DNA of 57,537 nt from Patescibacteria group bacterium (GTDB taxonomy: Bacteria; Patescibacteriota; Minisyncoccia; Phycocordibacterales; Phycocordibacteraceae). The first letter of the stretch is position 1; each line of letters begins with the position of its first letter. The notes under the pieces are model-generated. The model worked only from the letters and a program-made list of their open reading frames with translations, was not told the DNA's origin and searched no databases. The stretch lies in contig JAUPKX010000016.1 of NCBI GenBank assembly GCA_030837225.1, forward strand, positions 1 through 57,537. The letters run 5' to 3'. Position numbers and translations under genes: made by a program. This document shows, piece by piece, positions 4,005 to 27,362 of the stretch.

Positions 4005-4029
4005 ATGCATAACCGCGTAAGGTGAACCT

Positions 4030-5124
4030 ATGAAAATCGGCATCGTAGGACTTCCGAACGTTGGGAAGTCCACTCTCTTTAATGCACTTACTAAGGCCGC
4101 AGTCCCTGCGGAGAATTATCCGTTCTGCACCATAGACCCGTCTGTGGGTGTGGTTGGTGTTCCGGACGAGCGACTTACCCGTCTCGCAGAGCTATCGAAG
4201 TCCGAGAAGACGCTGCCTGCCGCTATCGAATTCGTTGATATCGCAGGACTCGTTAAGGGCGCCTCTGAGGGTGAGGGTCTTGGGAACCAGTTCCTTTCTC
4301 ATATCCGCGAAGTTGATGCCATCCTTCAGATGGTGCGCTTCTTTGACGATCCTGACGTTATCCACGTGCATGGAGATGTTGATCCGGTTCGAGATATCGA
4401 GATTATCAACCTCGAGCTCATCCTCGCGGATCAGCAGTCCGTGTCTGGACGTCGCGAGCGCTTGGTGCGCGACGTGAAGTCTGGCAACAAGGATGCGGTT
4501 GCTGAGGACGGAGTGCTTACTTTAATTGAACAAGCGCTACTCTCTGGAAAGCTCGCACGAACGGTGGAGCTTTCTGACGAAGATGCAAAGCGCATTAAGT
4601 CCCTGAACCTCCTTACCCGAAAGCCAATTCTCTACTCCTTCAACGGAAAGGCAGGAGGACACAATCTCTCAGAGCTTAACGACGGACGTGCGCAGGCTGC
4701 ATACGATCTTGTTGAGTCTCTTGGCGGACGCTACGTAGAGGTTGATGCACGTACTGAGCATGAGCTGAACGATGTGGCTTCAGAGGATAAGGATATGTTC
4801 CGTTCTGAGCTTGGGGTTCAGGTAGACGGACTCGAGGCGCTCATTCGCGGTGCATACGAGACACTTGGCCTCATCACCTTCTTCACGACCGGTCCGAAGG
4901 AGACTCGTGCCTGGACCATTACACGTGGGGCGTCAGCGCCTGAAGCAGGTGCGGCTATCCATAACGACTTTAAGGACAAGTTTATTAGAGCTGAGGTTGT
5001 TGGGTGCGATACGCTCGTTCAAGACGGCTCGTGGAGCGCTGCCAGAGACAAGGGAGACATACGGACTGAAGGGAAGACGTATATCGTGAACGATGGGGAT
5101 GTGATGGTGTTTTTGCATAGTTAG
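4030..5124 (+). CDS. ychF: Redox-regulated ATPase YchF
   Basis: [42 protein letters not shown]-terminal TGS domain. Confidence 0.98.
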
Positions 5125-5165
5125 ATCTCTCCCATAGAAGAGGTGGTCGCGTACTGAGTCCCAAA

Positions 5166-5191
5166 GGTTCGATCCCCAGTCTCCCAGCAAT
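5166..5191 (+). repeat. Array 1 leading site, short form (GGTTCGATCCCCAGTCTCCCAGCAAT), tRNA-3'-end-like
   Basis: Shares GGTTC and CCCAG.CT.CCAGCAAT with the long repeats; same form as 25623-25648. Confidence 0.8.
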
Positions 5192-5206
5192 GATAAACTG
5201 GTACTA

Positions 5207-5857
5207 ATGATAAAAGCTGAACTCAGGAAGCAGCTGGTAGATATAGCAAAAGAGCGTCAAACGAAGACCGACGTATCTCATGATTTTCAGCATGTGTTAC
5301 GTGTCTGCAACGTGGCTGAGAAGATAGCAGATACGGTGAATGCTGATCCAGAGATTGTTATACCTGCTGCGCTCTTCCACGATATCGTTGTCTATGCGAA
5401 GAATTCTCCTGAATCTCAGTTTGAGAATGAAGAGAGTGCGGAACTTGCAGGAGAGATACTCTCCTCGGTAGAGGGATATCCTTCTGAGAAGATAGAAGCA
5501 GTAAAGGCCTGTATACGCGAATGCTCGTTCTCTAAAGGAACTCTCCCTAGCTCTCTTGAATCTTCAGTGCTTCAAGATGCGGACCGCATGGATTCAGTAG
5601 GAGCAATTTCCATAATGCGAACATTCTCTTCGGGAGGACAGATGAATCGTCCTCTCTATGATCCTGAAGATCCTTTCTGTAAAGGAGAAAATCCGCCAAG
5701 CACTAGCGTGAGGCTTTTCTATAAAAGACTCTTGGTTGTAGCAGATCGGATGCACACAGACTATGCGAGAGAAGCAGCAAAACGGCGCGCTGATTTTACG
5801 AAGAGGTTCTTAGTGCAGCTTGGAATTGAGCTCGAAGAGAGTGGAATCGTTAAATAG
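5207..5857 (+). CDS. HD-domain phosphohydrolase (YedJ/YpgQ-like); cassette 1.1
   Basis: HDFQHVLRV, ALFHD, LQDADRMDSVGAI motifs. Confidence 0.88.
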   Translation: MIKAELRKQLVDIAKERQTKTDVSHDFQHVLRVCNVAEKIADTVNADPEIVIPAALFHDIVVYAKNSPESQFENEESAELAGEILSSVEGYPSEKIEAVKACIRECSFSKGTLPSSLESSVLQDADRMDSVGAISIMRTFSSGGQMNRPLYDPEDPFCKGENPPSTSVRLFYKRLLVVADRMHTDYAREAAKRRADFTKRFLVQLGIELEESGIVK

Positions 5858-5888
5858 GGTTCCAACATCGTCCCAGACTGCCAGCAAT
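5858..5888 (+). repeat. Cassette-boundary repeat, long form, copy 1
   Basis: GGTTCCAACATCGTCCCAGACTGCCAGCAAT immediately after the TAG of 5207-5857. Confidence 0.95.
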
Positions 5889-5991
5889 ACTTGTATTAAG
5901 CCCTCCGTGGGTATAGGGTGCGTATGGCTAACGCCAGGGTAGAAATACCTGTTCATGAACCCCTAACGGGACCTTGAAAAAGGAAGATGAA

Positions 5992-6468
5992 ATGGACTCG
6001 ATTGCAGACACGCTTATATGCGGATCCGCTGAAATAAATCGCATGAGAAGCGAGATTGATCTCGTTACTCAAATGCTCTTTGGGCTCGCAAAAGTTCCGC
6101 GAAATTCCAGACGATGGGAAGAAATCCGGCCAAAGCACCACCACGGTCTGATAGATTTCTCAATTAGTTTCGGCGACTTCGAGACAGTAGGGGTGGTATG
6201 GGAAGTCTGGTGGTTTAGTGGAGAAGACAAATTCCGTACCCAATGTCTACTCCAGACGTCTTCTCAGGACGATTGCCGTTGCGCATATCGGACCCGAATG
6301 CAGAGTGTGCATCGCGACTTCCACCCAACATATGGCGATCTCGGGGTCGCTGGGATCCAGAAAGCTCGAGAAACCCTGGATGTGTTTGTCGACGGAATGC
6401 TTCAGGAGTTTGGGCTAAATACCGCAACTAAGCCGTTCATAGATGCGGCAAGGATGCGAAAAGAGTAG
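5992..6468 (+). CDS. Hypothetical protein; cassette 1.2
   Basis: Only long plus-strand ORF between two repeats; ATG preceded by AAAGGAAG (alternative TTG start at 5974); own terminator. Confidence 0.65.
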   Translation: MDSIADTLICGSAEINRMRSEIDLVTQMLFGLAKVPRNSRRWEEIRPKHHHGLIDFSISFGDFETVGVVWEVWWFSGEDKFRTQCLLQTSSQDDCRCAYRTRMQSVHRDFHPTYGDLGVAGIQKARETLDVFVDGMLQEFGLNTATKPFIDAARMRKE

Positions 6469-6471
6469 TTG

Positions 6472-6512
6472 TGGCCGCCTAGTACCGAAAGGGAACGGCG
6501 GCCATTTGCTTT
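6472..6512 (+). terminator. Terminator hairpin; first 31 nt identical to 9210-9240
   Basis: tggccgcc-tagtaccgaaagggaac-ggcggcca followed by tttgcttt. Confidence 0.75.
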
Positions 6513-6517
6513 ATAAA

Positions 6518-6548
6518 AGTTCCAACATCGTCCCAGACTGCCAGCAAT
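6518..6548 (+). repeat. Cassette-boundary repeat, long form, copy 2
   Basis: AGTTCCAACATCGTCCCAGACTGCCAGCAAT. Confidence 0.95.
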
Positions 6549-6581
6549 CAGAGACAGGAGACTGCAAGTATAATTAGACCC

Positions 6582-7499
6582 ATGGAACTTCCAACGGAAC
6601 TAAAGGCTTTGTATAGGCATTGGCCAGAACATACTGCACAGCAAGCCAAACAACCTAATCTATGCGACGTATTTGAAGACGAAAAACTTTTTAAAGAGAT
6701 TTCAGCTTTCATCCATACACGGATGTCTATCTGGGAGAAGAAATATGTTGGGATGCCTCCTCCATATAGCGATGATCCAATTCTCTCCACATATCGCTTT
6801 TGTAACATCCTTAGGGAACTTGATCGACAAACAATCGAATACCACACACTCCTGAATCCGCTGCGAAGCGATTTCCAGCTGTGGCTTCTGAATATGTTTT
6901 ATTGTCGTCTGGTCGCTCGGCCAGAGACCGTACGTGCCGTTGGTCTTCTTTCCTTCGATCGCGCAAATAATGAAGCACTATACGAACGATTGAGTAAGTA
7001 TCCTCGTCCCCGATACGGCACACCGTACGTATTTCCTATAAGTACTATCTTGCGAAGCGCAACACCGACGAGAGAAGAATTCGTTGTACGACATTTGCCA
7101 GGTGTAATTGGAGGAATTGCAGAAGAAATATCCAGCTGGCGAAAACTGTCAGTAGTGGAGGGGGTAAGACGGGTGATCCCCTTATTCGGATTCAATCAGA
7201 CGTTCCTCTGGACCGAAGTACTTATTGATGTGGCGTATCAGTTTCCAGAACATATAGATCTATACAAGCCATTTCCAGTGGGTCCAGGCTCCTCTCCGAC
7301 CTTCAAGAGAATCGATCTTCATACGGAACCTTCTGAGCTTGCAGCGCAGTTAGGGCTTCTCGGATTCGAAACAAAACTAACATATGAGCGAGTGCCCCTT
7401 ACACTATCTGCTGAAAACTGGGAGGGAGTTGGTTGCGAGTTTCGCAAGTACACAAATCTAGAGTCCGGAAAGGGAAGGAGGCGTCTTTTTAAAACCTAA
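6582..7499 (+). CDS. aGPT-Pplase1 / 5-hmdU-kinase helical-domain (amino acid:DNA transferase-like) protein; cassette 1.3
   Basis: Signature PPYSDDPILSTYRFCNILRELDR, VGPGS and CEFRKY. Confidence 0.7.
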   Translation: MELPTELKALYRHWPEHTAQQAKQPNLCDVFEDEKLFKEISAFIHTRMSIWEKKYVGMPPPYSDDPILSTYRFCNILRELDRQTIEYHTLLNPLRSDFQLWLLNMFYCRLVARPETVRAVGLLSFDRANNEALYERLSKYPRPRYGTPYVFPISTILRSATPTREEFVVRHLPGVIGGIAEEISSWRKLSVVEGVRRVIPLFGFNQTFLWTEVLIDVAYQFPEHIDLYKPFPVGPGSSPTFKRIDLHTEPSELAAQLGLLGFETKLTYERVPLTLSAENWEGVGCEFRKYTNLESGKGRRRLFKT

Positions 7500-7500
7500 A

Positions 7501-7531
7501 AGTTCCAACATCGTCCCAGACCGCCAGCTCT
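7501..7531 (+). repeat. Cassette-boundary repeat, long form, copy 3
   Basis: AGTTCCAACATCGTCCCAGACCGCCAGCTCT, 1 nt after the TAA of 6582-7499. Confidence 0.95.
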
Positions 7532-7548
7532 AGTATATTTGCTACTGT

Positions 7549-8046
7549 ATGCGTATGTCACTTCCTCCAGAAGTACCCGTAGAAGACTACGTCTATAAGT
7601 ATCTTCTCGGCCCGGTAGAATCTGCCGAGGCGCTTAACCAGCCTGTGACAGAAGGAAATTGTAGGCTGGCACTACAGCTCTATTATTTTCGCGTACACGG
7701 CATATTTTTTCAGCAGAACGATATTTATCTCCCCGGTGGATACAAAGCATGGGGAGAATTTATCTTTAAAGAGGAACCAATAGATTTTGAGAAGCTCCAA
7801 CCAGGAGATGTCTTGTATGCCCAGAACTTCCGAGGAAAGAGAGGTCAGGAACTGCTCAAGGGCATAGAGAACTTTAAGGACAAAGACGAATGGTTATATC
7901 ATCTACATAGTGCCATTTACGTTGGAAAGATTAGCGGCACGCATTACATTTGGAATGCGACAAGTATTGTTGGAGCTACGATCACGTGGCCGCTAGAAAC
8001 CTTTGTATACTATTACAAGCCAATTTCGGCAAAGAGGATACTGTAA
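7549..8046 (+). CDS. NlpC/P60-like papain-fold protein; cassette 1.4
   Basis: GNC (catalytic Cys), LQPGDVLY and HSAIYVG (catalytic His). Confidence 0.65.
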   Translation: MRMSLPPEVPVEDYVYKYLLGPVESAEALNQPVTEGNCRLALQLYYFRVHGIFFQQNDIYLPGGYKAWGEFIFKEEPIDFEKLQPGDVLYAQNFRGKRGQELLKGIENFKDKDEWLYHLHSAIYVGKISGTHYIWNATSIVGATITWPLETFVYYYKPISAKRIL

Positions 8047-8047
8047 A

Positions 8048-8078
8048 GGTTCCAACATCGTCCCAGGCTGCCAGCAAT
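8048..8078 (+). repeat. Cassette-boundary repeat, long form, copy 4
   Basis: GGTTCCAACATCGTCCCAGGCTGCCAGCAAT, 1 nt after the TAA of 7549-8046. Confidence 0.95.
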
Positions 8079-8168
8079 AGTCTGAATTGTAGTCATTTCT
8101 CTTAGGCTGCAAGTTGGTAAGTTTGTGGTATAGTCCTCACGGATTAACCCAATCACAAGGAGGCCGCC

Positions 8169-9188
8169 ATGGCCGAAGCTACCTATAGGATGCAAGCGCT
8201 CGTGGTGCTTCGGGAAGGGATGCGTCTCTTCTACGATTGCCCGAGTATGAGCGGCGAAAGTTTCGAGTCTGACAATTTCTTCAGGAAGTACAAGGGCAAG
8301 ACGGGAATCATCGCAGGGTTCCCAATCACCCTCGTTGGCCCGTTCGATTCCAAAGGTCGCCTTCCGGGTTCGTACCTTACGCCCGGGTACATGCATGTTC
8401 GATTTGAGGGTGAGGAAGAGTTTCATCAAAGCCTTAATCTCCATCATTTCGTTCTGCTGGATCCGACCACCACCGTAACCGATGAAGAGTTCGACGAGGC
8501 TCAACGCAGCGGCGACCTTCCGCACCCAATCCTCTTCTATCCAGGGGATACGGTGTACAAGCAGGATGACCTGTTGCAGGTCCGTCGTGTCGTTCAAGAA
8601 GTAAAATTCGGCACTGCCGGTATTCCGCTCTATGTGTTGAGCGAAACCTCGGAAGCCACTGAGCGGCGTATGGCTGACAAGGCGGCCGATCATGCTGAGC
8701 GAGAGGCGAGAAGGGAGGCAAGCCCTGACAACCTGCCTCTCCTTTCTGGATTTTGTTCGCACGACAGGCCGGAAACGGAAACGTGTGAGGGCACGAATCT
8801 CGTGCTCCTCGAACGTGGCCACAGCTACTACCTCTACCACGACCCTTCGAAGCTATCGTTTGCGTCAGCTGAGGAAGAACTGGACTTCTGGAGTCAGGAT
8901 GGCCTGTCGAAGACCTTCTACGGACCTCGACGACTCTTCCGTACTTGGGAGTGGTCGCTGGCCCAGGCCCGAGCCCTCTTGGAGGAGGGGAAGGGAGACC
9001 TCATCGTTACTTCCAGAATGCCTAGAGGCAGGCGAGATGATTCTGAGCAGAAGTACACGGTCAGGATCCTGCACGCAGGCTTCGCTGAATATCGTGACCG
9101 CGTTCGGCAACTTGCTTTGTCCATTGCACCACCTCTCGAGAAGGAAAAAACCTTCGCAGAGTTGGGACGAGGCCTTCTGGATCTGTGA
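8169..9188 (+). CDS. Hypothetical protein; cassette 1.5
   Basis: 339-aa ORF with AAGGAGG Shine-Dalgarno, TGGTATAGT promoter box upstream and its own terminator. Confidence 0.75.
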   Translation: MAEATYRMQALVVLREGMRLFYDCPSMSGESFESDNFFRKYKGKTGIIAGFPITLVGPFDSKGRLPGSYLTPGYMHVRFEGEEEFHQSLNLHHFVLLDPTTTVTDEEFDEAQRSGDLPHPILFYPGDTVYKQDDLLQVRRVVQEVKFGTAGIPLYVLSETSEATERRMADKAADHAEREARREASPDNLPLLSGFCSHDRPETETCEGTNLVLLERGHSYYLYHDPSKLSFASAEEELDFWSQDGLSKTFYGPRRLFRTWEWSLAQARALLEEGKGDLIVTSRMPRGRRDDSEQKYTVRILHAGFAEYRDRVRQLALSIAPPLEKEKTFAELGRGLLDL

Positions 9189-9209
9189 TATCAAGTTCAA
9201 GTGCTTAAC

Positions 9210-9250
9210 TGGCCGCCTAGTACCGAAAGGGAACGGCGGCTTTTATTTTC
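9210..9250 (+). terminator. Terminator hairpin; first 31 nt identical to 6472-6502
   Basis: tggccgcctagtaccgaaagggaacggcggc followed by ttttattttc. Confidence 0.8.
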
Positions 9251-9254
9251 AAAA

Positions 9255-9285
9255 AGTTCCAACAGCGTCCCAAACTGCCTGCTAT
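9255..9285 (+). repeat. Cassette-boundary repeat, long form, copy 5 (last of array 1; diverged right arm)
   Basis: AGTTCCAACAGCGTCCCAAACTGCCTGCTAT. Confidence 0.9.
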
Positions 9286-9296
9286 ACTTCTCGCAT

Positions 9297-9734
9297 ATGG
9301 AAATAAGCAACCTTCTGGGGCCAGTGGAAATGCAGTTTGTTATTGGTCTTGGGCTCTCCCTTATCCTTGGATACTTTGTTGGAGTCGAGCGTGAGATGCG
9401 CCATAAGGATGCAGGTATCAGCACGCACATCATGGTTATCGCCGGCTCAATGCTTTTCACACTCCTCTCGAGCATTGTTGACCCTCTTTCAACCTCGCGC
9501 ATTGCGTCACAGATTGTGGTTGGTATCGGATTCCTCGGTGCCGGACTCATCCTTAAAGAAGGAGCTAGTGTTAAGAATCTCACAACCGCAGCAAGTGTAT
9601 GGTTCGCAGCTGCTATAGGTATGGCACTTGGATTCGGTTTCTACATTGTTGCGATTCTCGCTGCACTCGTTATTACTCTTGTTCCGCGTATCCCAAGCTT
9701 GCATAACGAGAAGTGCGTAAAGTGCCCTGAATAA
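9297..9734 (+). CDS. MgtC/SapB family membrane protein
   Basis: G.ERE...KDAGISTH, SRIASQIVVGIGFLGAGLI and LTTAASVW motifs; ATG 8 nt after TATACT. Confidence 0.92.
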   Translation: MEISNLLGPVEMQFVIGLGLSLILGYFVGVEREMRHKDAGISTHIMVIAGSMLFTLLSSIVDPLSTSRIASQIVVGIGFLGAGLILKEGASVKNLTTAASVWFAAAIGMALGFGFYIVAILAALVITLVPRIPSLHNEKCVKCPE

Positions 9735-9764
9735 AATTGCAGAGTCGTGGTATAATCCACGTAT

Positions 9765-10745
9765 ATGGAAAACACCCCCGCTGCAGCACCCTCCGCATCG
9801 AAGACAACACCGCGCGACTTCTTTTTCTGGGCTGGGCTCCTTGTAGCACTTATTGGAAGCGTCATCTCGCTTACGACGCTCCTCTTCTCCTATATAAACT
9901 TCGCGTTCCCTGATCCGCTTGCGTACTACGGCGATCCGTACGGCAGTGATGTGCGCATCGCGATGGCGTGCGTGATTGTATTCATCCCAACCGCGCTCGT
10001 ACTCGTGCACCTGATTAGAAAGACAATCATAAACGAGGCCGGAAAGGCGAACATCTGGGTCCGTCGTTGGGCACTCGGTCTCATACTCTTCGTTTCGACC
10101 CTAACTATCCTCATAGACCTCATAACGCTCATCATGACGTTCCTTGGGGGCGAGCTATCAATTCGCTTTGGTCTTAAGGTAGCGGTGGTGCTCCTCATTG
10201 CAGCGTTCATGTTCCTTCACTTCCTCGCAGACCTTAAGGGATACTGGCTTGAGCACGTGAAGAAGGCAGGTCTCGTGTCCTCTTCGATACTCGCCATGGC
10301 ACTCGTCTCGGTTGTTGCCGGCTTCTTTATCATTGGTACACCGGGAGACATCCGCATGATGCGCTTCGACGAGCAGAAAGTATCTGATCTTCAGAACATC
10401 CAGTACCAGGTAGTTAACTACTACCAGCAGAAGGAGGAGCTTCCTGAGTCTCTTGCAGAGCTTAGTGACCCAATCTCAGGGTTTGTTCTCCCTGTTGATC
10501 TACAGCCGGGTAGTGCTGCATATCGCTACACTGTTACCGGTCCGCTCTCGTTTGAGCTTTGTGCCGTGTTCAATAAGCCAACGCCTGATACGCGTGGCCA
10601 AGGAGGGTATCCAGCCCGTGATATGAGCTATCCATCGCCAGGTATGGGCGTTGATGAGAATTGGCAGCACGAAGCGGGCGATATCTGCTTTACACGCACC
10701 ATCGACCCTGAGCGCTACCCGGCTTTCGAGAAGCCTCTACAGTAA
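9765..10745 (+). CDS. Membrane protein (DUF5671-like) with pilin-like C-terminal domain
   Basis: TPRDFF N-terminus, 5 TM segments, D.QKVSDLQNIQ..V.NYY...LP.SL..L and YRYTV...FELCAVF. Confidence 0.65.
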   Translation: MENTPAAAPSASKTTPRDFFFWAGLLVALIGSVISLTTLLFSYINFAFPDPLAYYGDPYGSDVRIAMACVIVFIPTALVLVHLIRKTIINEAGKANIWVRRWALGLILFVSTLTILIDLITLIMTFLGGELSIRFGLKVAVVLLIAAFMFLHFLADLKGYWLEHVKKAGLVSSSILAMALVSVVAGFFIIGTPGDIRMMRFDEQKVSDLQNIQYQVVNYYQQKEELPESLAELSDPISGFVLPVDLQPGSAAYRYTVTGPLSFELCAVFNKPTPDTRGQGGYPARDMSYPSPGMGVDENWQHEAGDICFTRTIDPERYPAFEKPLQ

Positions 10746-10754
10746 GAAGACTGT

Positions 10755-13649
10755 ATGGCGAAAGAACGGTTCGATCATGTAGCGATTGAGAAGTCCGCCC
10801 AGGAGAAATGGGAGGCGCTTGATATCTACACCACTGATCTAACTGATTCTGAAAAGGAACCGTACTATCTTCTGTTCGAGTTCCCGTATCCTTCGGGAGA
10901 CCTTCATATCGGTCACTGGTTTGCGTTTGCCCTTACGGACATATTCGCGCGCTTCAAGCGTATGCAAGGAAAGAACGTATTGTTCCCAATGGGATTCGAT
11001 TCGTTTGGTCTTCCTGCGGAGAATGCCGCTATTAAGAACGGCGCGGATCCGGCGGTATGGACTAACGCGAACATGGAGCGCATGCGTGCGCAGGTGAAGA
11101 CCATGGGAACCTCGGTTGACTGGTCTAAGGAAGTCGTTACCTCGAGTCCTGAGTACTACAAGTGGACTCAGTGGCTCTTCTCGAAGCTTTATGACCATGG
11201 ACTTGCGTACCGCAAGGAAGCGGCGGTGAAGTGGTGTCCGAAGGATCAGACGGTGCTCGCCAACGAGCAGGTAATAGACGGGAAGTGTGAGCGCTGCGAC
11301 TCTGAAGTAGAGGAGAAGTTCCTAACACAGTGGTTCATGGGTATTACGAAGTACGCAGAACGTCTCCTCACGGATCTTGATCCGCTTCCATGGCGCGAAG
11401 AGATGAAAGATGCGCAGCGCGCATGGATAGGAAAGTCAGAGGGCGCAAAGCTTACCTTCCCTATCCTTTTTGCTGACGAAGCGAAGAACGAGTGGCGAGA
11501 CGAGGAAGGAAACCCGGCACAGGTAGCTGTGTTCACAACCAGACCAGATACGGTCTTCGGTGCTACCTATGTAGTGCTCGCACCCGAGCATCCGTGGGTA
11601 ACAGGGGCGCTTGAGCACGGTACTGACGTATTTTCAAACGAGAAAGAGGTTCGTGCGTATATACAGGAGACCGCAAAGAAGACTGAGCGAGAGCGACTTG
11701 AGAACAAGGAGAAGACTGGTGTGAAGCTTGAGGGTATTCGTGCCGTTAATCCAGCCACAAAAGGAGAAGTCCCGGTCTATATCGCTGACTACGTACTCGC
11801 CTCATACGGAACAGGTGCGGTTATGGCGGTTCCCGCTCATGACGAGCGTGATTTTGATTTCGCACAGAAGTTTAAACTTCCAATCCGGCATGTTATTGAG
11901 CCAAAGTTTGTGGCGGATGGAGATCAAGCACCAATATCAGGACAGGATTTTGAACGTCGAGAATCAGCGTGCATCGTAGTCTATAACCCAAAGGATAAGA
12001 CTTATCTATGTAACAACTGGAAAACTGCTCTCATGCGTGGTTTGTTTACTGGCGGAATAGATGAAAACGAGGATGTTGTTGAGGCAGCTAGACGAGAGAT
12101 CTTGGAGGAAACCGGCTATACAAATTTGCGTCATATTGAACGTCCTGAGTTGCACGTAAACACATTCTTCTTCCATCGCATGAAGGGTGTAAATCGTTGG
12201 TCTCACTTTACGTTTGTATTTTTTGAGCTTGAGAATGAGGATTGCCTACCTGTAACGGACGAAGAATCAGCGCTTCACGAAATAGTGTGGAAGTCTGCAG
12301 AGGAGTTAGACGATTTCTTTACTGTTCCTGAAGGATGGTTTATAGCTAAGCACCTCGATGCTGCAGAGTACTGTTATTCGTACGACGGCCTTCTAATGAA
12401 TTCTGGTCAGTTCGATGGCAAAGACAACCGTGAAGCCATGAGCGAGATCATCGACTTCGTGGGTGGCGAGCACGTAACGAACTATCGCCTTCGCGACTGG
12501 CTCGTCTCTCGCCAGCGGTACTGGGGCTGCCCAATCCCTGTTGTGTACGACCCTGAAGGTGCACTGCACCTCATCCCGTCCGAGCATCTCCCGTGGACTC
12601 TCCCAACAGACGTCGACTTCTCGCTGTCCTCTGAGTCTCCACTCGCAACCTCAAAGGAACTTAAGGAGCGCGTTGAGCGTATTTTTGGCGAGGGATGGAC
12701 TCCTGAGTACGATACGCTCGATACCTTCGTTGATTCTTCATGGTATTTCCTTCGGTATCTCGACTCAAAGGACGAGAATGATTTCTCAGACCAGTCACTA
12801 TTAAAGAAGTGGCTACCGGTTAATCGGTATTCGGGAGGCAGCGAGCACACAACCATGCACCTCTTGTATTCGCGCTTCTTCCATAAGGCGCTCTACGATC
12901 TTGCTCTGGTGCCTACACCGGAGCCATTCAACGAGCGTTTTAATCGCGGACTCATACTTGGCACCGACGGACAGAAAATGAGTAAGCGCTGGGGCAATGT
13001 TGTTAATCCGGACGAGGTCGTTGCAAAATTTGGTTCAGACGCGGTGCGTATGTATCTCGCGTTCATCGGTCCATACAACGAGCCAGGAAGTTATCCGTGG
13101 AAGCTTGATGGCGCAGTTGCAATGCGCAAGTTCCTCGATCGCGTGTACCAGCTGTCAGAAAAGGTATCAGAGGGCGAGCTGTCAGAGAACGAGCGAACGT
13201 CGCTCGCGAAGGCCGCGAAGAAGATAACGGGCGATACAGAGCGCTTCAAGTTCAATACTGCTATCTCAGGACACATGGTCTTCGTTCGTGAGCTCGAGAG
13301 TGCTGAGACTGTATCGAAAGAGGTATACCTCGCACTCCTAACGCTTATGGCTCCATTTGCCCCGCACCTTGCCGAGCATCTCTGGGAGCGGATGGGGGGC
13401 GAGGGTAGCGTACATACGGCCTCGTGGCCGGAGGAGATCGCAGTTGAGGAAGACACGGTTGTTATAGGGGTGCAGGTAAACGGGAAAAGGAGGGGAGAGA
13501 TTGTCCTGGCCCCAGATGCCTCAGAAGAGGAGGCAATGGAGGCTGCAAAGGCTAACGAGACCATAGGTCGCCTTCTTCATGAAGGAAAGGTGGAGAAAGT
13601 GGTCTATGTACCAGGCCGTATTCTGAACCTGGTGATAACACGAAGTTGA
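10755..13649 (+). CDS. leuS: Leucine--tRNA ligase with inserted Nudix domain
   Basis: FPYPSGDLHIGH, TTRPDT, GTGAVMAVPAHD and KMSKR; Nudix box GGIDENEDVVEAARREILEETG inserted. Confidence 0.97.
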   Translation: MAKERFDHVAIEKSAQEKWEALDIYTTDLTDSEKEPYYLLFEFPYPSGDLHIGHWFAFALTDIFARFKRMQGKNVLFPMGFDSFGLPAENAAIKNGADPAVWTNANMERMRAQVKTMGTSVDWSKEVVTSSPEYYKWTQWLFSKLYDHGLAYRKEAAVKWCPKDQTVLANEQVIDGKCERCDSEVEEKFLTQWFMGITKYAERLLTDLDPLPWREEMKDAQRAWIGKSEGAKLTFPILFADEAKNEWRDEEGNPAQVAVFTTRPDTVFGATYVVLAPEHPWVTGALEHGTDVFSNEKEVRAYIQETAKKTERERLENKEKTGVKLEGIRAVNPATKGEVPVYIADYVLASYGTGAVMAVPAHDERDFDFAQKFKLPIRHVIEPKFVADGDQAPISGQDFERRESACIVVYNPKDKTYLCNNWKTALMRGLFTGGIDENEDVVEAARREILEETGYTNLRHIERPELHVNTFFFHRMKGVNRWSHFTFVFFELENEDCLPVTDEESALHEIVWKSAEELDDFFTVPEGWFIAKHLDAAEYCYSYDGLLMNSGQFDGKDNREAMSEIIDFVGGEHVTNYRLRDWLVSRQRYWGCPIPVVYDPEGALHLIPSEHLPWTLPTDVDFSLSSESPLATSKELKERVERIFGEGWTPEYDTLDTFVDSSWYFLRYLDSKDENDFSDQSLLKKWLPVNRYSGGSEHTTMHLLYSRFFHKALYDLALVPTPEPFNERFNRGLILGTDGQKMSKRWGNVVNPDEVVAKFGSDAVRMYLAFIGPYNEPGSYPWKLDGAVAMRKFLDRVYQLSEKVSEGELSENERTSLAKAAKKITGDTERFKFNTAISGHMVFVRELESAETVSKEVYLALLTLMAPFAPHLAEHLWERMGGEGSVHTASWPEEIAVEEDTVVIGVQVNGKRRGEIVLAPDASEEEAMEAAKANETIGRLLHEGKVEKVVYVPGRILNLVITRS

Positions 13650-23706: not shown

Positions 23707-25623
23707 ATGACTGTATCTGAAGTCCGTAAGCGATTCCTGGCATTCTACGAGGCCCGTGGCCATGTGATTATCCCATCAGCTCCTATTGTGCCCGGGAACG
23801 ATCCAACAACGCTCTTCACCTCAAGTGGCATGCAGCCCTTGCTCCCATACTTCCTTGGAAAGGATCATCCGGAAGGAAAGCGCGTGGTGAACTCTCAGCT
23901 CGCCTTCCGTGCAGGAGACATTGAGGAAGTAGGAGACAATCGTCACACGACATTCTTCGAGATGCTCGGGAACTGGTCCTTTGGTGACTATTTCAAGCAG
24001 GAACAGCTGCCGTGGATATTTGAGTTCCTTACGAGTACCGAGACGGGCTTTGGTATTGATCCAAGTAAGCTGTATGTAACCGTGCTTGCAGAGGACAAGG
24101 AGGCGGGCATCCCGCTTGATACAGAAGCCGTAGAGCTCTGGAAACGACTGTTTAAGGAAAAGGGAGTTGCTGCGGAGTTCTCTAACATAGGCAGCGAAGC
24201 TGATGGATACGAGAAAGGCATGGGAACAAGCGATCGCATATTTGCGTATGACGCCAAGAAGAACTGGTGGAGCCGCTCAGGGGTGCCAAGTAATATGCCA
24301 GCAGGCGAACCAGGGGGTCCTGACTCAGAGATTTTTTATGACTTCGGGACGACGCACGATACAAAATGGGGCACTCACTGCCATCCGAACTGTGACTGTG
24401 GGCGGTTTGTTGAGATAGGGAACTCGGTGTTTATGCAGTTTGTTAAGAATGAAGATGGTTCCTTTGAGGAGCTTCCGAAGAAGAATATCGATTTTGGCGG
24501 AGGCCTCGAGCGTATAACGATGGCAACCGTTGGACCAGATATCTTTAGTCTTGATATCTTTGACGCTGCTCGCGCGGTTATTGAAGAACGCTCTGGAAAG
24601 AAGTATGGGGAAGATGAGGCTGCTGCTCGCGCATTCCGCATCATTCTCGACCACATGCGCGCGAGCGCGTTCATGCTAGCCGAAGGAATCCTCCCGTCTA
24701 ACACCGAGGCAGGCTATGTACTACGCCGGTTGCTTCGTCGTGCGATACGCGAATCAGATCGTCTTGGTATCAAGGACGCCGTACTCGCTGACGTTGCGAG
24801 GGGGTATGGGCAGGCGTATGCCGACCAGTACCCACACGTACTTGCAAACGCTCCGAAGATAGCAGAGGAGATTGCAAAAGAGGAGGAGAAATTCCGCAAA
24901 ACCCTTACGGGCGGCATGCGCGAGCTAGAGAAGTTAGTAGCAAAGGGCTCTGTTACTCCAGAGGATGTGTTTACCCTGTTTACGTCCTATGGCTTCCCTG
25001 TTGAATTAACTGAAGAGATTGCGAACGAGCGTGAGATAGAGATAGACCTCGCTGGCGTACTCGAGCTTATGAAGAAGCATCAAGAGACCTCAAGGGCAGG
25101 AGGAGCCCAGCGCTTTGCGGGCGGACTTGCAGACCACGCAGAGCAGACGGTACGGTATCACACCGCACACCATATCCTTCTAAAGGCGCTTCAGATGGTG
25201 CTTGGTTCAGAGGTTAAGCAGCGCGGTTCAAACATAACCTCTGAGCGTCTTCGTATAGACTTTGCATCTCCAGGCAAGATGACGGACGAACAGAAAGCTG
25301 AGGTTGAGAAGATTGTGAACGAGGTTATATACCAGGATCTTCCGGTTACGCGTACTGTTATGCCACGCGAAGAGGCAGAGAAACTTGGAGCTGAGATGGA
25401 GTTCGGTGTTAAGTATCCGGATATGGTGTCGGTATATTCTGTTGGCCCAATACACGCAACAGAAGAGACCCCGGATATCCCTAACGCGTTTTCTCTTGAG
25501 TTCTGCGGAGGGCCGCACGTATCTAATACAAGCGAGATACATGCAGACGGAAGGAAGTTCCGTATTCAGAAGGAAGAAGCGGTAGCGAGCGGTGTTCGCA
25601 GGATTAAGGGGGTGTTGGAGTAG
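23707..25623 (+). CDS. alaS: Alanine--tRNA ligase (short form without C-Ala domain)
   Basis: DPTTLFTSSGMQP, RHTTFFEMLGNWS, HTAHH and EFCGGPH; ends at GVRRIK. Confidence 0.97.
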   Translation: MTVSEVRKRFLAFYEARGHVIIPSAPIVPGNDPTTLFTSSGMQPLLPYFLGKDHPEGKRVVNSQLAFRAGDIEEVGDNRHTTFFEMLGNWSFGDYFKQEQLPWIFEFLTSTETGFGIDPSKLYVTVLAEDKEAGIPLDTEAVELWKRLFKEKGVAAEFSNIGSEADGYEKGMGTSDRIFAYDAKKNWWSRSGVPSNMPAGEPGGPDSEIFYDFGTTHDTKWGTHCHPNCDCGRFVEIGNSVFMQFVKNEDGSFEELPKKNIDFGGGLERITMATVGPDIFSLDIFDAARAVIEERSGKKYGEDEAAARAFRIILDHMRASAFMLAEGILPSNTEAGYVLRRLLRRAIRESDRLGIKDAVLADVARGYGQAYADQYPHVLANAPKIAEEIAKEEEKFRKTLTGGMRELEKLVAKGSVTPEDVFTLFTSYGFPVELTEEIANEREIEIDLAGVLELMKKHQETSRAGGAQRFAGGLADHAEQTVRYHTAHHILLKALQMVLGSEVKQRGSNITSERLRIDFASPGKMTDEQKAEVEKIVNEVIYQDLPVTRTVMPREEAEKLGAEMEFGVKYPDMVSVYSVGPIHATEETPDIPNAFSLEFCGGPHVSNTSEIHADGRKFRIQKEEAVASGVRRIKGVLE

Positions 25624-25648
25624 GTTCGATACTCAGACTGCGAGCAAT
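25623..25648 (+). repeat. Array 2 leading site, short form (GGTTCGATACTCAGACTGCGAGCAAT)
   Basis: Overlaps the alaS stop codon; same length and layout as 5166-5191; CAGACTGC.AGCAAT matches the long repeats. Confidence 0.8.
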
Positions 25649-25666
25649 AATTGCTATACTCAAGCT

Positions 25667-26122
25667 ATGGCAGATACAATTTTCGACAAACTCCTCAAAG
25701 GAAACATTCCGTCATGGAAAGTCTGGGAAGATGAGAAGTTTCTAGCTTTTCTAACGCCATTTCCCAACACGCCGGGACTAACGGTTGTAATACCCAAGCA
25801 GAATATTGGAGACTATGTTTTTAACCTGCAAGAGTCAGAGTACGAAGAGTTATTGAAGACGGCGAAGACCGTAGCCAAGATTCTGGAAAAGGCATTCAAT
25901 ACTCCTCGCGTATCATTAATATTTGAAGGTACTGGTGTGGCTCATGTTCACGCAAAGCTCGTCCCACTCCATGGAGAATTAGCCGAGCAGACAGGAGTAT
26001 GGAGTCCTCATACTGAATTCAATGAGCAATATCTTGGTTACCTTACTACTGCAGAAGGTCCAAAAATGGATGATTCGGAACTGGATCGAATTCAAGGACT
26101 CATTCTTGAAGCACAGAAATAA
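25667..26122 (+). CDS. HIT family nucleotide hydrolase; cassette 2.1
   Basis: TIFDKLL.G.IP, FLTPFPNTPG.TVVIPK and VAHVHAK (third His of HxHxH replaced by Lys). Confidence 0.9.
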   Translation: MADTIFDKLLKGNIPSWKVWEDEKFLAFLTPFPNTPGLTVVIPKQNIGDYVFNLQESEYEELLKTAKTVAKILEKAFNTPRVSLIFEGTGVAHVHAKLVPLHGELAEQTGVWSPHTEFNEQYLGYLTTAEGPKMDDSELDRIQGLILEAQK

Positions 26123-26152
26123 GTTCCAACATCGTCCCAGACTGCCAGCCCG
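26122..26152 (+). repeat. Cassette-boundary repeat, long form, copy 6
   Basis: AGTTCCAACATCGTCCCAGACTGCCAGCCCG overlapping the HIT stop codon. Confidence 0.95.
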
Positions 26153-26167
26153 ATATACAATGGACGT

Positions 26168-26494
26168 ATGTTGCAAGGAACTATCGTTGAGAATAGTCTA
26201 ACTGACCCTACTGTCTTAGGAGACTTGTCTATTCTTAAGAGTTGGCCTGAAGGGTCTTGGAAGCTTCATCAAGTGCAACTTGATAGAGAGCAGGCAATTG
26301 AGCTAGCAACCTTTCTAGCTGACGGGCCTTGGTATATGCATTTCTGGGAGCCGGGTACTGAAGATGTACTCGTTGTTTTTAAAGACAAAACTTTTGACAT
26401 AAAGTATTCAGACAAATCTACATGGGAAGAAGCGGTTGCCTATGGGAAGTCGACTGGTGTTCCCGAGGAGCAACTAGATTTTCTGATTTACTAA
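26168..26494 (+). CDS. Hypothetical protein; cassette 2.2
   Basis: 108 aa; G.IVENSL, WYMHF and YGKS.GVPEEQLDF motifs; ATG 6 nt after TACAAT. Confidence 0.8.
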   Translation: MLQGTIVENSLTDPTVLGDLSILKSWPEGSWKLHQVQLDREQAIELATFLADGPWYMHFWEPGTEDVLVVFKDKTFDIKYSDKSTWEEAVAYGKSTGVPEEQLDFLIY

Positions 26495-26525
26495 GGTTCC
26501 AACATCGTCCCACACCCCCAGCAAC
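26495..26525 (+). repeat. Cassette-boundary repeat, long form, copy 7 (last of array 2; diverged right arm)
   Basis: GGTTCCAACATCGTCCCACACCCCCAGCAAC, between the TAA at 26494 and the convergent stop at 26526. Confidence 0.92.
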
Positions 26526-27362
26526 CTAATCTTGAACCGTAACCTCAGTGCCAACCGGCGCCCACCCATACAACTCTCTGGCTATATCAAGGGGTACATT
26601 CACACACCCATGAGACCACTGCTGTCCGAAGTTGGTGTGCCAGTACGCGCCGTGTATAGCGCCCCCTTCAGCCGTGAAGTACATATTCCAGGGAACACCT
26701 GGTAGGTCGTAATAATCCTCAGATATGCCCGGGAGAGGTCCTTGCATATACCGACTTGGAGTCTTCTTAAACACTTTGAAGTTCCCGCGTGGCGTTGGAG
26801 TTAAATCGTGTCCGGTTGAGATTGTAGTCTTTAAAACGAGTTCCTTGCCATCATACGCATAAAGCATCTGCTCAGAACGATCGACAACGATACGCTTATC
26901 TGTTGGCTCGTCTCCAGTCATTGGTAATGTAGCCCCTGGGTCATAGAACGCGCGCACCTGGTCGCTCGCTACATACCAATCCTTCGCTACTCGATCTGGA
27001 TAGCGTATCCACTCGTTGAACTCCACCTTGTACCAAACGCGTCCAGACGCATCCGTCTCGGTGTCTTTTGATATAGGAAGTACCGTTCCGGTACGTAGTT
27101 TTCCAATAGCGGGAGCCGACGTCGTTGCTTCCATGCGTATGTTTACGCAGCTTCCAGAGAAGTCAGCGCCGCACCCGTCGAGCACTTCGATAAAGGATGG
27201 TACTTCCGTTTTTGGTTCCTCGGCAAATATAAGCTCAGAAACCGCACTCGTTGTTTCCTCAAGTGAAACAATCTTTCCGTTATATGCAAAGAATGTTAGG
27301 CACGCTGCCGCAAGCGCACCAATCAGGAGCGATACGAGCAAAATCTTCTTATCCCTATCCAT
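26526..27362 (-). CDS. L,D-transpeptidase (YkuD) with N-terminal TM and SH3-like domain
   Basis: IVVDRSEQ, ISTG...TPRG and AIHGAYWH...SHGCVN motifs. Confidence 0.92.
   Translation of the reverse strand: MDRDKKILLVSLLIGALAAACLTFFAYNGKIVSLEETTSAVSELIFAEEPKTEVPSFIEVLDGCGADFSGSCVNIRMEATTSAPAIGKLRTGTVLPISKDTETDASGRVWYKVEFNEWIRYPDRVAKDWYVASDQVRAFYDPGATLPMTGDEPTDKRIVVDRSEQMLYAYDGKELVLKTTISTGHDLTPTPRGNFKVFKKTPSRYMQGPLPGISEDYYDLPGVPWNMYFTAEGGAIHGAYWHTNFGQQWSHGCVNVPLDIARELYGWAPVGTEVTVQD

Follow-up and report, generated by a model that had tools for sequence, protein, structure and literature searches.

The window studied here is a stretch of 57,537 nucleotides, contig JAUPKX010000016.1 of assembly GCA_030837225.1, from a Patescibacteria group bacterium of the family Phycocordibacteraceae. 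Its genome (G000) comprises 16 contigs that add up to 667 kb; the window corresponds to contig C6. Between ychF and mgtC, the window carries an array of five single-gene units bounded by short direct repeats. A preliminary description of this DNA had read the array as a gene-capture system, in which small cassettes with their own promoters are moved by a recombinase acting in trans. Bacteria of the candidate phyla radiation have genomes of 0.5-1 Mb with few recognisable mobile elements, and little is known about the ways in which they gain and rearrange accessory genes.

Arrays of one-gene units in the window

The first array (array 1) lies between two conserved genes, and all of its features are on the plus strand. 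On its left is ychF (4030-5124; Pfam YchF-GTPase_C and MMR_HSR1), a core gene that is present in 61 of 61 genomes of the genus. On its right is mgtC (9297-9734; Pfam MgtC, 3.5e-34), a flank that is conserved by synteny in relatives. The array opens with a 26-nt site at 5166-5191 (GGTTCGATCCCCAGTCTCCCAGCAAT), which is a copy of the 3' end of tRNA-Gln(UUG) and has one mismatch to the consensus of its family, GGTTCGATCCCTAGTCTCCCAGCAAT. We will call the members of this family P sites, for primary sites. An orthologous copy of this P site is present in the genomes G021 and G051. There is no tRNA at 5166-5191 and the sequence upstream is not tRNA-like; the window as a whole contains no Rfam family and no tRNA.

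The other five sites of the array are of a second type, the C site, which spans about 31 nt including conserved flanks, (A/G)GTTCCAACATCGTCCCAGACTGCCAGCAAT, and reads GGTTCCAACATCGTCCCAGACTGCCAGCAAT where it has no mismatches. They are found at 5858-5888 and 6518-6548 (no mismatches), 7501-7531 (two mismatches), 8048-8078 (one), and 9255-9285 (four; the 28-mer copy begins at 9256). The preliminary description had placed six copies of a single repeat at 5166, 5858, 6518, 7501, 8048, and 9255. There are indeed sites at all six positions, five of them strong copies far beyond chance, and the spacings of 660, 983, 547, and 1207 nt are as it gave them; the one at 5166, which it counted as another copy of the repeat, is the P site. 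As a probe for the C site we used the 28-mer GTTCCAACATCGTCCCAGACTGCCAGCA, which matches the window six times with at most 3 mismatches and has no match in any of 100 shuffles.

Each unit contains one plus-strand open reading frame (ORF), in 5 of 5 cases, as had been described. The gene of unit 1 (5207-5857) encodes an HD-domain phosphohydrolase (Pfam HD, 1.7e-11; NCBIfam phosphohydrolase, 2e-40, which is below the cut-off of that model), and here the earlier label stands. Unit 2 (5974-6468) encodes a protein of 164 amino acids (aa) that belongs to no family. The protein of unit 3 (6582-7499; 305 aa), which had been called aGPT-Pplase1-like, has an HMUDK_hel domain (Pfam PF18723, 2.3e-14), and TATAAT lies 7 nt upstream of its ATG. 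Unit 4 (7549-8046; 165 aa) had been labelled NlpC/P60-like, and we found no support for this label, or any other match, in Pfam, NCBIfam, or PDB sequences. Unit 5 (8169-9188) encodes 339 aa of no family. The stop codons of units 1, 3, and 4 adjoin the repeat (0-2 nt), and a terminator hairpin intervenes in unit 2 (6472-6504) and in unit 5 (9210-9240), again in agreement with the preliminary description. The right end of the last C site, CCTGCTATACT, is the extended -10 promoter of mgtC, and this end stays with the downstream context.

The extent of array 1 had been given correctly, but a second array in the window, at 25623-26525, had been missed. Array 2 is on the plus strand as well. It begins with a P site at 25623-25648 (GGTTCGATACTCAGACTGCGAGCAAT), which is followed by a HIT-family gene (25667-26122; Pfam HIT, 3e-10) with TGCTATACT 6 nt upstream of its ATG, a C site at 26122-26152 (28-mer at 26123-26150, one mismatch), an ORF of 108 aa (26168-26494) with no family in the Pfam and NCBIfam scans, and a last C site at 26495-26525 (28-mer at 26496-26523, three mismatches). 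This last site faces a convergent gene at 26526-27362 on the minus strand. In G021, the orthologous P site (L041:18933) is followed by one different, reverse-oriented unit and then a C site.

Elsewhere in G000, the 28-mer has matches at up to 7 mismatches that bring the number of C-site copies to about 20. Nearly all of them lie just past the stop codon of a co-oriented gene or past a hairpin. Several end against a convergent gene, which implies that the C site is not simply a promoter; that the C site is itself a promoter was also rejected for lack of a fixed -35/-10 geometry. Six P sites are present in G000, and each heads an array; they lie behind ychF, ahead of the HIT gene, behind an M23 peptidase gene, in tRNA-Gln(UUG), at C12:30773, and beside xer. 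The array at tRNA-Gln(UUG) is on contig C4, where the real 3' end of the tRNA gene is followed by units that run into the contig end (C4:59883-60922). The tRNA-Gln(CUG) gene is also trailed by sub-variant sites. Overall, there are at least 7 arrays per genome, and about 5% of the 667-kb genome consists of one-gene units. Assemblies probably break at the arrays, which makes the copy numbers per genome minimum values.

The P site and tRNA-Gln

P sites are either the 3' end of tRNA-Gln(UUG) itself, from the T-loop to the discriminator plus CAAT, or a copy of that 26-mer at the stop codon of a core gene. Such tRNA ends are a classical target of integrases. We identified 83 distinct P sites: 13 are within tRNA-Gln(UUG) genes, and the other 70 are isolated 26-mers, which in many cases overlap a core gene at its stop codon (ychF, the M23 peptidase, and others have a copy fused to the stop codon). 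In 76 of the 83, a C site lies downstream at a distance of no more than 1.5 kb, and there is none upstream. The remaining seven have a C site on neither side, and no P site has one upstream (0/83). P sites thus mark the starts of arrays.

Upstream of about 65 of the P sites outside tRNA genes there is no tRNA-like sequence (z < 3), except for three tandem partial tRNA copies. This led us to reject the idea that the P site at ychF is a decayed whole tRNA. Also, the T-arm pairing of the true tRNA, as read off the sequence, is lost in the P copies behind ychF and the M23 peptidase gene; with the pairing not kept and nothing tRNA-like upstream, we rejected a tRNA-like RNA element too. The C site shares GGTTC and CCCAG.CT.CCAGCAAT with the end of tRNA-Gln.

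In five relatives that lack the sites, P-like matches occur only at the 1-3 places that are expected from the 3' ends of tRNA-Gln genes. In the four of these that we retrieved, the matches are tRNA-Gln genes or their partial tandem copies. Three site-free loci, L235 (G065), L238 (G063), and L239 (G071), have a partial copy of the tRNA-Gln 3' half, from the anticodon arm to the 3' end, about 30-100 nt downstream of the gene. These partial copies resemble scars that earlier rounds of integration and excision would have left at tRNA-Gln. A single site in G057 (L236:180-209, GTTTCGATACCGTCTCAGACATCCAGCAAT) follows tRNA-Gln, is between P and C in type, and precedes a leaderless-type promoter. There is no second copy of this C-like site in G057 at up to 3 mismatches, and the M23 locus of the site-free genomes G044, G057, and G065 has no comparable repeat family.

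Neither type of site has hairpin potential on either strand: the DNA folds at 0 to -0.9 kcal/mol, which is no improvement on shuffles (z scores of +0.6 to +1.2). In this respect the repeat is unlike attC, as the preliminary description had it. Read off the sequence, the left 11 nt of the C site match the reverse complement of its right 11 nt at 2 of 11 positions. The site varies most at positions 17-21.

Anatomy and content of the units

From G000 and the loci that we retrieved, we obtained 313 units (from one site to the next), 260 of which are distinct. Every array begins with a P site, 1-10 co-oriented units come after it, and each unit is closed by a 31-nt C site. Adjacent C sites less than 2.6 kb apart have the same orientation in 328 of 328 pairs. 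Units range from 0.2 to 2.4 kb, with a median of 532 nt. Among the distinct units, the gene is in the forward orientation in 135 and on the opposite strand in 102; for 23, the orientation is unclear.

Forward units are compact. Of the 135, 84 have the start codon within 30 nt of the site, and 58 have no more than 4 nt between the stop codon and the next site. A TAnnnT box that ends 4-9 nt upstream of the start codon is present in 83 of the 135, as compared to 3 of 135 control positions inside ORFs, and 50 of these 83 boxes have the TGn extension. The typical arrangement, TGnTAnnnT 6-7 nt before the ATG, can be seen in the window at 9280-9299, 6567-6584, and 25652-25669. Only 18 forward units have a Shine-Dalgarno-like word. 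Given -10 boxes so near the start codon and so few Shine-Dalgarno words, we read the boxes as the units' own promoters, as had been proposed, and the transcripts as leaderless mRNAs. The promoter pattern, which the core gene mgtC shows as well, suggests that this lineage commonly makes leaderless mRNAs.

Reverse units begin with a hairpin after the upstream site, and at their other end a promoter and a ribosome-binding site adjoin the downstream site. Directly upstream of 12 copies of the C site is a conserved block of 30 nt, CTAGACAGAACCTAGCATAnGTTGCAnAAAG (G000 C1:18977-19004 and loci L001, L002, L003, L004, L006, and L010). The opposite strand of this block reads as an extended -10 promoter (TGCTAGGTT) for reverse-oriented genes that are unrelated to each other.

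The terminators of units 2 and 5 in array 1 are copies of a hairpin repeat, D2 (46 nt, 85% alike between the two). Within it, 31 nt (TGGCCGCC...GGCGGCC) are identical, and they close two units that are unrelated. The same hairpin (34 nt, 97%) ends an unrelated unit in another metagenome-assembled genome (MAG), at L117 near 6890-6925. The shared hairpin implies that the conserved block at the end of a unit can reach beyond the C site.

The content of the units is hyperdiverse, and at any one locus it differs almost wholly from genome to genome. Among the 260 distinct units there are only 9 homologous pairs, and the first 48 units include just one. We compared 150 of the 209 distinct unit proteins of at least 80 aa to Pfam. 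They match 54 families, and most of the proteins have no match. Among the 25 commonest families, the leading ones are NUDIX (7), HAD (5), GNAT acetyltransferases (4), methyltransferases (3), and DUF218 (3).

Distribution of the sites

To examine the distribution of the sites, we scanned 61 genomes of the genus for a 15-mer of the site, allowing one mismatch. Matches were found in 17 of the 61 genomes; the reversed pattern, which was our control, gave 0-1. Eleven of the 61 have at least 4 copies (G000, G020, G021, G022, G051, G055, G058, G064, G068, G074, and G075). We will call these genomes site-rich, and their arrays have up to 10 units. In G018, the site takes a variant form of its own, found in an array of six.

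We placed the site-rich genomes on a tree of a single gene, YchF, for the 30 of the 61 genomes with the best YchF matches. All 12 of them (the eleven, and G018 by its variant site) are in one subclade of 21 rows, and there are none among the other 9 rows. Within the subclade, the presence of sites changes at least four times at well-supported branches. The tree fits one origin followed by repeated loss; gains are also possible.

More broadly, an exact 24-mer has 55 loci in 25 assemblies of a species collection, and another 67 loci in metagenomes. Where the title of the entry names a group, it is always of the Patescibacteria type (Parcubacteria, Paceibacterota, Kaiserbacteria, Nomurabacteria, and some that are labelled Saccharibacteria); a few titles say only "uncultured bacterium". 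Going by these titles, the system belongs to a single lineage within Parcubacteria/Paceibacterota.

Units are gained, lost, and relocated at the sites

The closest relative of G000 is G021, with a YchF that is 99% identical and flanking DNA that is about 85% identical. G021 aligns to positions 4028-5217 and 9252-11902 of the window, and the gap between these is 4034 nt in G000 and 593 nt in G021. Where G000 has five units at this locus, G021 has the same P site, one unit with a HAD-type hydrolase (and its own TGtTATACT box), one C site, and mgtC. The single C site of G021 is orthologous to the fifth C site of G000: both have CCTGCT and read ...ACTGCCTGCTATACT. In the more distant, site-free relative G065, ychF is directly beside mgtC, with 6 nt and then the mgtC promoter TGCTATACT. 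G051 has decayed sites at the ychF locus. As anticipated in the preliminary description, relatives carry different genes between the same flanks, and the ends of the insertions and deletions coincide with sites, at this locus, at the xer locus (see below), and for relocated units.

Arrays recur at the same places across genomes, notably in the neighbourhood of tRNA-Gln and dnaX (10 loci) and of gltX and the M23 peptidase gene (6-7 loci). Two units also recur at different loci in other genomes. The G000 unit beside xer (C12:179783-180196) recurs in L114, in the tRNA-Gln array of another MAG, with 83.8% identity over 419 nt, as compared to 68-69% for the core flanks. Another G000 unit, after tRNA-Ala (C8:28890-29195), recurs in L111, in the HIT-locus array of a third MAG, with 91.2% identity, as compared to 75-79% for the core flanks. 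In both cases, the similarity starts in the upstream site and stops in the downstream site, and the flanking sequences are unrelated. These two units, found at other loci with homology that ends at the sites, support the gene-capture reading in its main points. Like the architecture, distribution, and hyperdiversity of the arrays, the gain and loss of units at sites and their relocation are well documented.

A search for the enzyme

We searched the genomes for recombinases. Tyrosine recombinases (PF00589) number exactly one per genome in G000, G020, G021, G075, and the site-free G065 (G074 was left out of this search). The sole match in G000 is on contig C12, and there is no tyrosine-recombinase domain in the window. 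The protein is XerA/XerD-like (NF040815, 243 bits, with a cut-off of 220), and the models for integron integrases score it far below their cut-offs. The preliminary description had stated that no integrase is encoded in the window; for known families this holds in the genome too, apart from this one XerA-like core gene. We found no recombinase in any array flank or unit (for the units, among the 25 commonest of the 54 families). With phmmer, the XerA-like protein had two matches among 1729 ORFs from array loci, both of which are orthologous xer genes.

The xer gene does have a site beside it. In G000, one array ends at the 3' end of this core gene: its convergent stop codon (C12:180195-180197) is inside the right end (AACTAT) of the site at 180169-180199. 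The xer stop codon is within a site in G021 as well (L163:2148-2172), and on the metagenome contig L190, a C site at 5392-5415 is 15 nt past the xer stop. Downstream of xer, G020 and G075 have no conserved site, and across the genus no dif-like site beside the gene is conserved. The site at or near the xer stop is the only link of the XerA-like gene to the system, and it is circumstantial. This protein is nevertheless the only recognisable candidate for the enzyme.

A model for the exchange of units

The xer locus offers a comparison of an occupied and an empty site. G021 has a single empty site, ...CCCTAGTCTGCC|AACTAT. G000 has ...CCCTACTCTGCC|AGCTAC (with the left part ...TCTGCC), a unit, a C site, another unit, and ...CCCAGACTGCC|AACTAT. 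In G000, the first site therefore has the left half of the empty site, and the last site has its right end. This is what we would expect if circles with one C site had recombined to the right of ...CTGCC. Shared units point to the same region: where the upstream site has a rare variant of positions 24-31, this variant accompanies the unit (CAGCTAGC, 8 of 8; CAGCAATT, 8 of 8), and positions 19-23 differ. Also, two C sites (G000 C8:29168-29195 and L088 near 262) lack the ACTG between the CCAG words (CCCAG|CCAG), and this 4-nt deletion falls at the inferred crossover zone.

We propose that units are moved by conservative site-specific recombination, with strand exchange between about positions 19 and 24 of the site and an enzyme that would act in trans. 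A unit would move as [AGCAAT ... gene ... GGTTCCAACATCGTCCCAGACTGCC], split in the way of an integron cassette, so that the first site of an array would keep the left half of P and the last site would keep the right end of the original target. Both the mechanism and the crossover zone are inferred from sequence comparisons, and we consider this kind of exchange, with these features, to be probable. We also considered a crossover in the T-loop (dyad CTAGG-TTCGATC-CCTAG). We rejected this because C-type sites would then come first and P-type sites last, which is the opposite of the arrays that we see.

Several observations weigh against a conservative site-specific exchange. The C site has neither dyad symmetry nor a hairpin, which sets it apart from attC and from the core sites at which known tyrosine and serine recombinases act. 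A simple exchange between P and C leaves the left half of P at the 70 places outside tRNA genes unaccounted for. The mapping of the junctions rests on few pairs and few junctions. The candidate enzyme is a single-copy core gene that is found in 57 of the 61 genomes, including site-free ones, and its identity to the G000 copy is not significantly higher in site-rich genomes (8 versus 10 genomes; Mann-Whitney p = 0.087, with genomes that are not independent). In five site-rich genomes, there were no matches to Cas1, Y1_Tnp, rve, the DEDD domain of IS110, or the zinc ribbon of TnpB; no serine recombinase was found in G000 or G020; and a reverse transcriptase is present in two of the five site-rich genomes and not in G000. 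Finally, no circular or excised form was seen, in data that consist of contigs and could not show one. None of the 67 metagenome loci has a terminal direct repeat of 15 nt or more; this collection has almost no entries under 1 kb, so single-unit circles could not be there.

Alternative explanations

That no recombinase family co-occurs with the sites is what one would expect if there were no dedicated recombinase at all, and if the site were just a handle of homology for DNA uptake and RecA-type recombination, as for cassettes in naturally competent bacteria. Many copies of the site are identical over 28-31 nt, which is near the minimum length for pairing by RecA, and the arrays are found at a few conserved hot spots. 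Yet units abut P, which shares only GGTTC and a mismatched stretch of 17 nt with C, and this homology is too short and too interrupted for RecA. The right junction at the ychF locus reads ...GCC|TGCTATACT, as compared to only GACC|TGCTATACT in the site-free relative, and the variants at junctions point to the narrow zone of positions 19-24 instead of the whole site. The uniform orientation of adjacent sites (328/328), together with species-specific variants such as that of G018, fits a protein that reads the site. Homologous recombination alone is thus an unlikely explanation.

We think it less likely still that the site is a regulatory or insulating element in cis (a roadblock, an element upstream of promoters, or a signal for RNA processing), with units that turn over by other means. 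The site is always between transcription units, and the 30-nt extension precedes reverse-oriented genes in its 12 long copies, where, on the opposite strand, TGCTAGGTT comes about 17 nt after the TTGGAAC at the end of the site. But some sites have nothing to regulate, such as the site at 26496 that faces a convergent gene or those that overlap the xer stop codon; the distance from the site to the -10 box varies in forward units; and the site forms no RNA or DNA structure. Homology that ends within sites, and arrays that start at tRNA-Gln, would also be left unexplained. As for a selfish repeat that is interspersed between the genes of variable regions, so that a unit is whatever happens to lie between two copies, the roughly 20 copies per genome at several loci and the decayed copies in G051 are in keeping with an element like a repetitive extragenic palindrome (REP) or a miniature inverted-repeat transposable element. 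The site is not palindromic, however, and no RAYT or Y1 transposase was found. Inverted pairs are never seen, the site is absent between conserved core genes, and relatives differ in whole units together with one site, rather than in the site by itself. The preliminary description had named a REP-like scatter as a refutation, and the repeat is not REP-like, in that it forms only co-oriented arrays that are opened by a special first site. We give this last explanation very little credence.

Conservative site-specific exchange could be part of a broader picture: a new gene-capture platform with no integrase beside the arrays, in which at least 7 entry points per genome, all marked by a 26-nt copy of the tRNA-Gln 3' end, exchange dozens of mini-cassettes that bring their own promoters. 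It would be run by the housekeeping XerA-like recombinase, or by an enzyme family that is not yet recognised as a recombinase, and would be the main route of accessory-gene variation in these host-dependent, ultra-small bacteria. We put this forward tentatively, as a possibility that we rate at somewhat below even. If the proposed mechanism of exchange is right, then integron-like capture of cassettes extends to a phylum and to a type of site where it was not known before, it becomes possible to test directly which enzyme moves genes in these organisms, and the compact, structure-free pair of 26-nt and 31-nt sites might serve as a recombination tool. A few dozen sampled loci gave 260 different units, and this pool (NUDIX, HAD, HIT, HD, GNAT, and small proteins of unknown function) is a catalogue of what these symbionts vary.

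Relationship to known systems

Integrative elements at the 3' ends of tRNA genes, such as genomic islands and cis-mobilisable elements, pile up in tandem. The arrays resemble them in starting at the 3' end of an intact tRNA gene (13 P sites), in having segments that are bounded by direct repeats related to the tRNA end, and in the duplicated tRNA-Gln 3' halves of relatives. Unlike these elements, the units are only 0.2-2.4 kb and none of them encodes an integrase, the C site differs from the tRNA end (P) in its left half, and most arrays start at a 26-nt copy behind a protein-coding gene.

The arrays also resemble integrons, especially sedentary chromosomal ones (IntI, attI, and attC; see PMC4889954). 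Common features are co-oriented single-gene units with a distinct first site; sites between units that are nearly identical within a genome and vary between lineages; hyperdiverse content that is rich in small enzymes such as acetyltransferases and NUDIX proteins; and a split site whose last bases start the next unit. In contrast, no integron integrase adjoins any of the arrays, and the first site is the 3' end of tRNA-Gln or a copy of it. The attC site is an imperfect palindrome of 55-140 nt, instead of the hairpin-free 31 nt seen here, and integrons have one platform, instead of at least 7 arrays in a genome of 0.67 Mb. Integron cassettes are mostly promoterless and depend on one Pc, whereas these units have their own promoters and either orientation, with 102 of 260 on the opposite strand.

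In the pdif modules of Acinetobacter plasmids and in dif-integrating elements, the housekeeping Xer proteins are thought to move the modules (PMC6449649, PMC7399989, and PMC13141974). These too are small accessory modules without a recombinase of their own, bounded by sites of about 28 nt. The only recombinase here is likewise a single XerA-like gene, which one array abuts. A pdif site consists of a 6-nt spacer flanked by two inverted 11-nt arms, and successive pdif sites alternate in orientation; C and P have no such symmetry and are all direct. Like CRISPR arrays, the arrays have direct repeats of about 28-31 nt at regular intervals and a distinct start; unlike CRISPR, with its spacers of 25-50 nt, the "spacers" are whole genes of 0.2-2.4 kb, and Cas1 is found in 0 of 5 site-rich genomes.

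Of the systems that are known, integrons and tandem tRNA-targeting integrative elements come closest. Given that there is no integrase in or beside the arrays, no attC structure, and a site that is not dif-like, we set the arrays apart as a cassette-array variant of their own. We found no description of this system in the open-access full-text literature.

Reads, viral contigs, and homologs of unit 3

Fourteen sequencing runs were available, all of them as Logan contigs, and we aligned four (X1, X5, X6, and X7) to the window. In the likely source sample, the contigs break at exact repeats (5860-5888, 6473-6546, and 9211-9239), so the order of unit 1, unit 2, and units 3-5 depends on the original assembly. 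In another sample, one contig spans 7018-8075 and so places units 3 and 4 side by side there as well. Apparent joints between distant positions (5191>8045, 5883>8047, 5889>6510, and 7527/7529>8045) were discounted, as their sides are only 20-30 nt and amount to the repeat aligning to itself. X6 also has a 15-letter bridge, 5126>7511, at a depth of 2.1. Parts of the array are uncovered in X5, X6, and X7 at depths of 2-5, which we count as no finding.

A 17-mer scan of viral contigs gave 43 loci (L119-L161), of which 39 match the 28-mer with at most 8 mismatches. All but one of these (38 of 39) are a single conserved stretch, in which 20 nt are identical to the left part of the C site. At L125:6148-6175, the match is inside an ORF on a GC-rich viral contig, which we take, from motifs that we recognise, to encode a protein like a cytosine-5 DNA methyltransferase. 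We set the viral matches aside as a chance 20-mer identity in a multi-copy gene.

Homologs of the HMUDK_hel protein of unit 3, with 56-66% identity, are found in 5 of 200 other genomes of the genus, and none of them is flanked by sites. In three of these five site-free genomes, the gene adjoins tRNA genes (L058, L060, and L061, from G072, G198, and G103). In those genomes, the HMUDK_hel gene is mobile by some other route.

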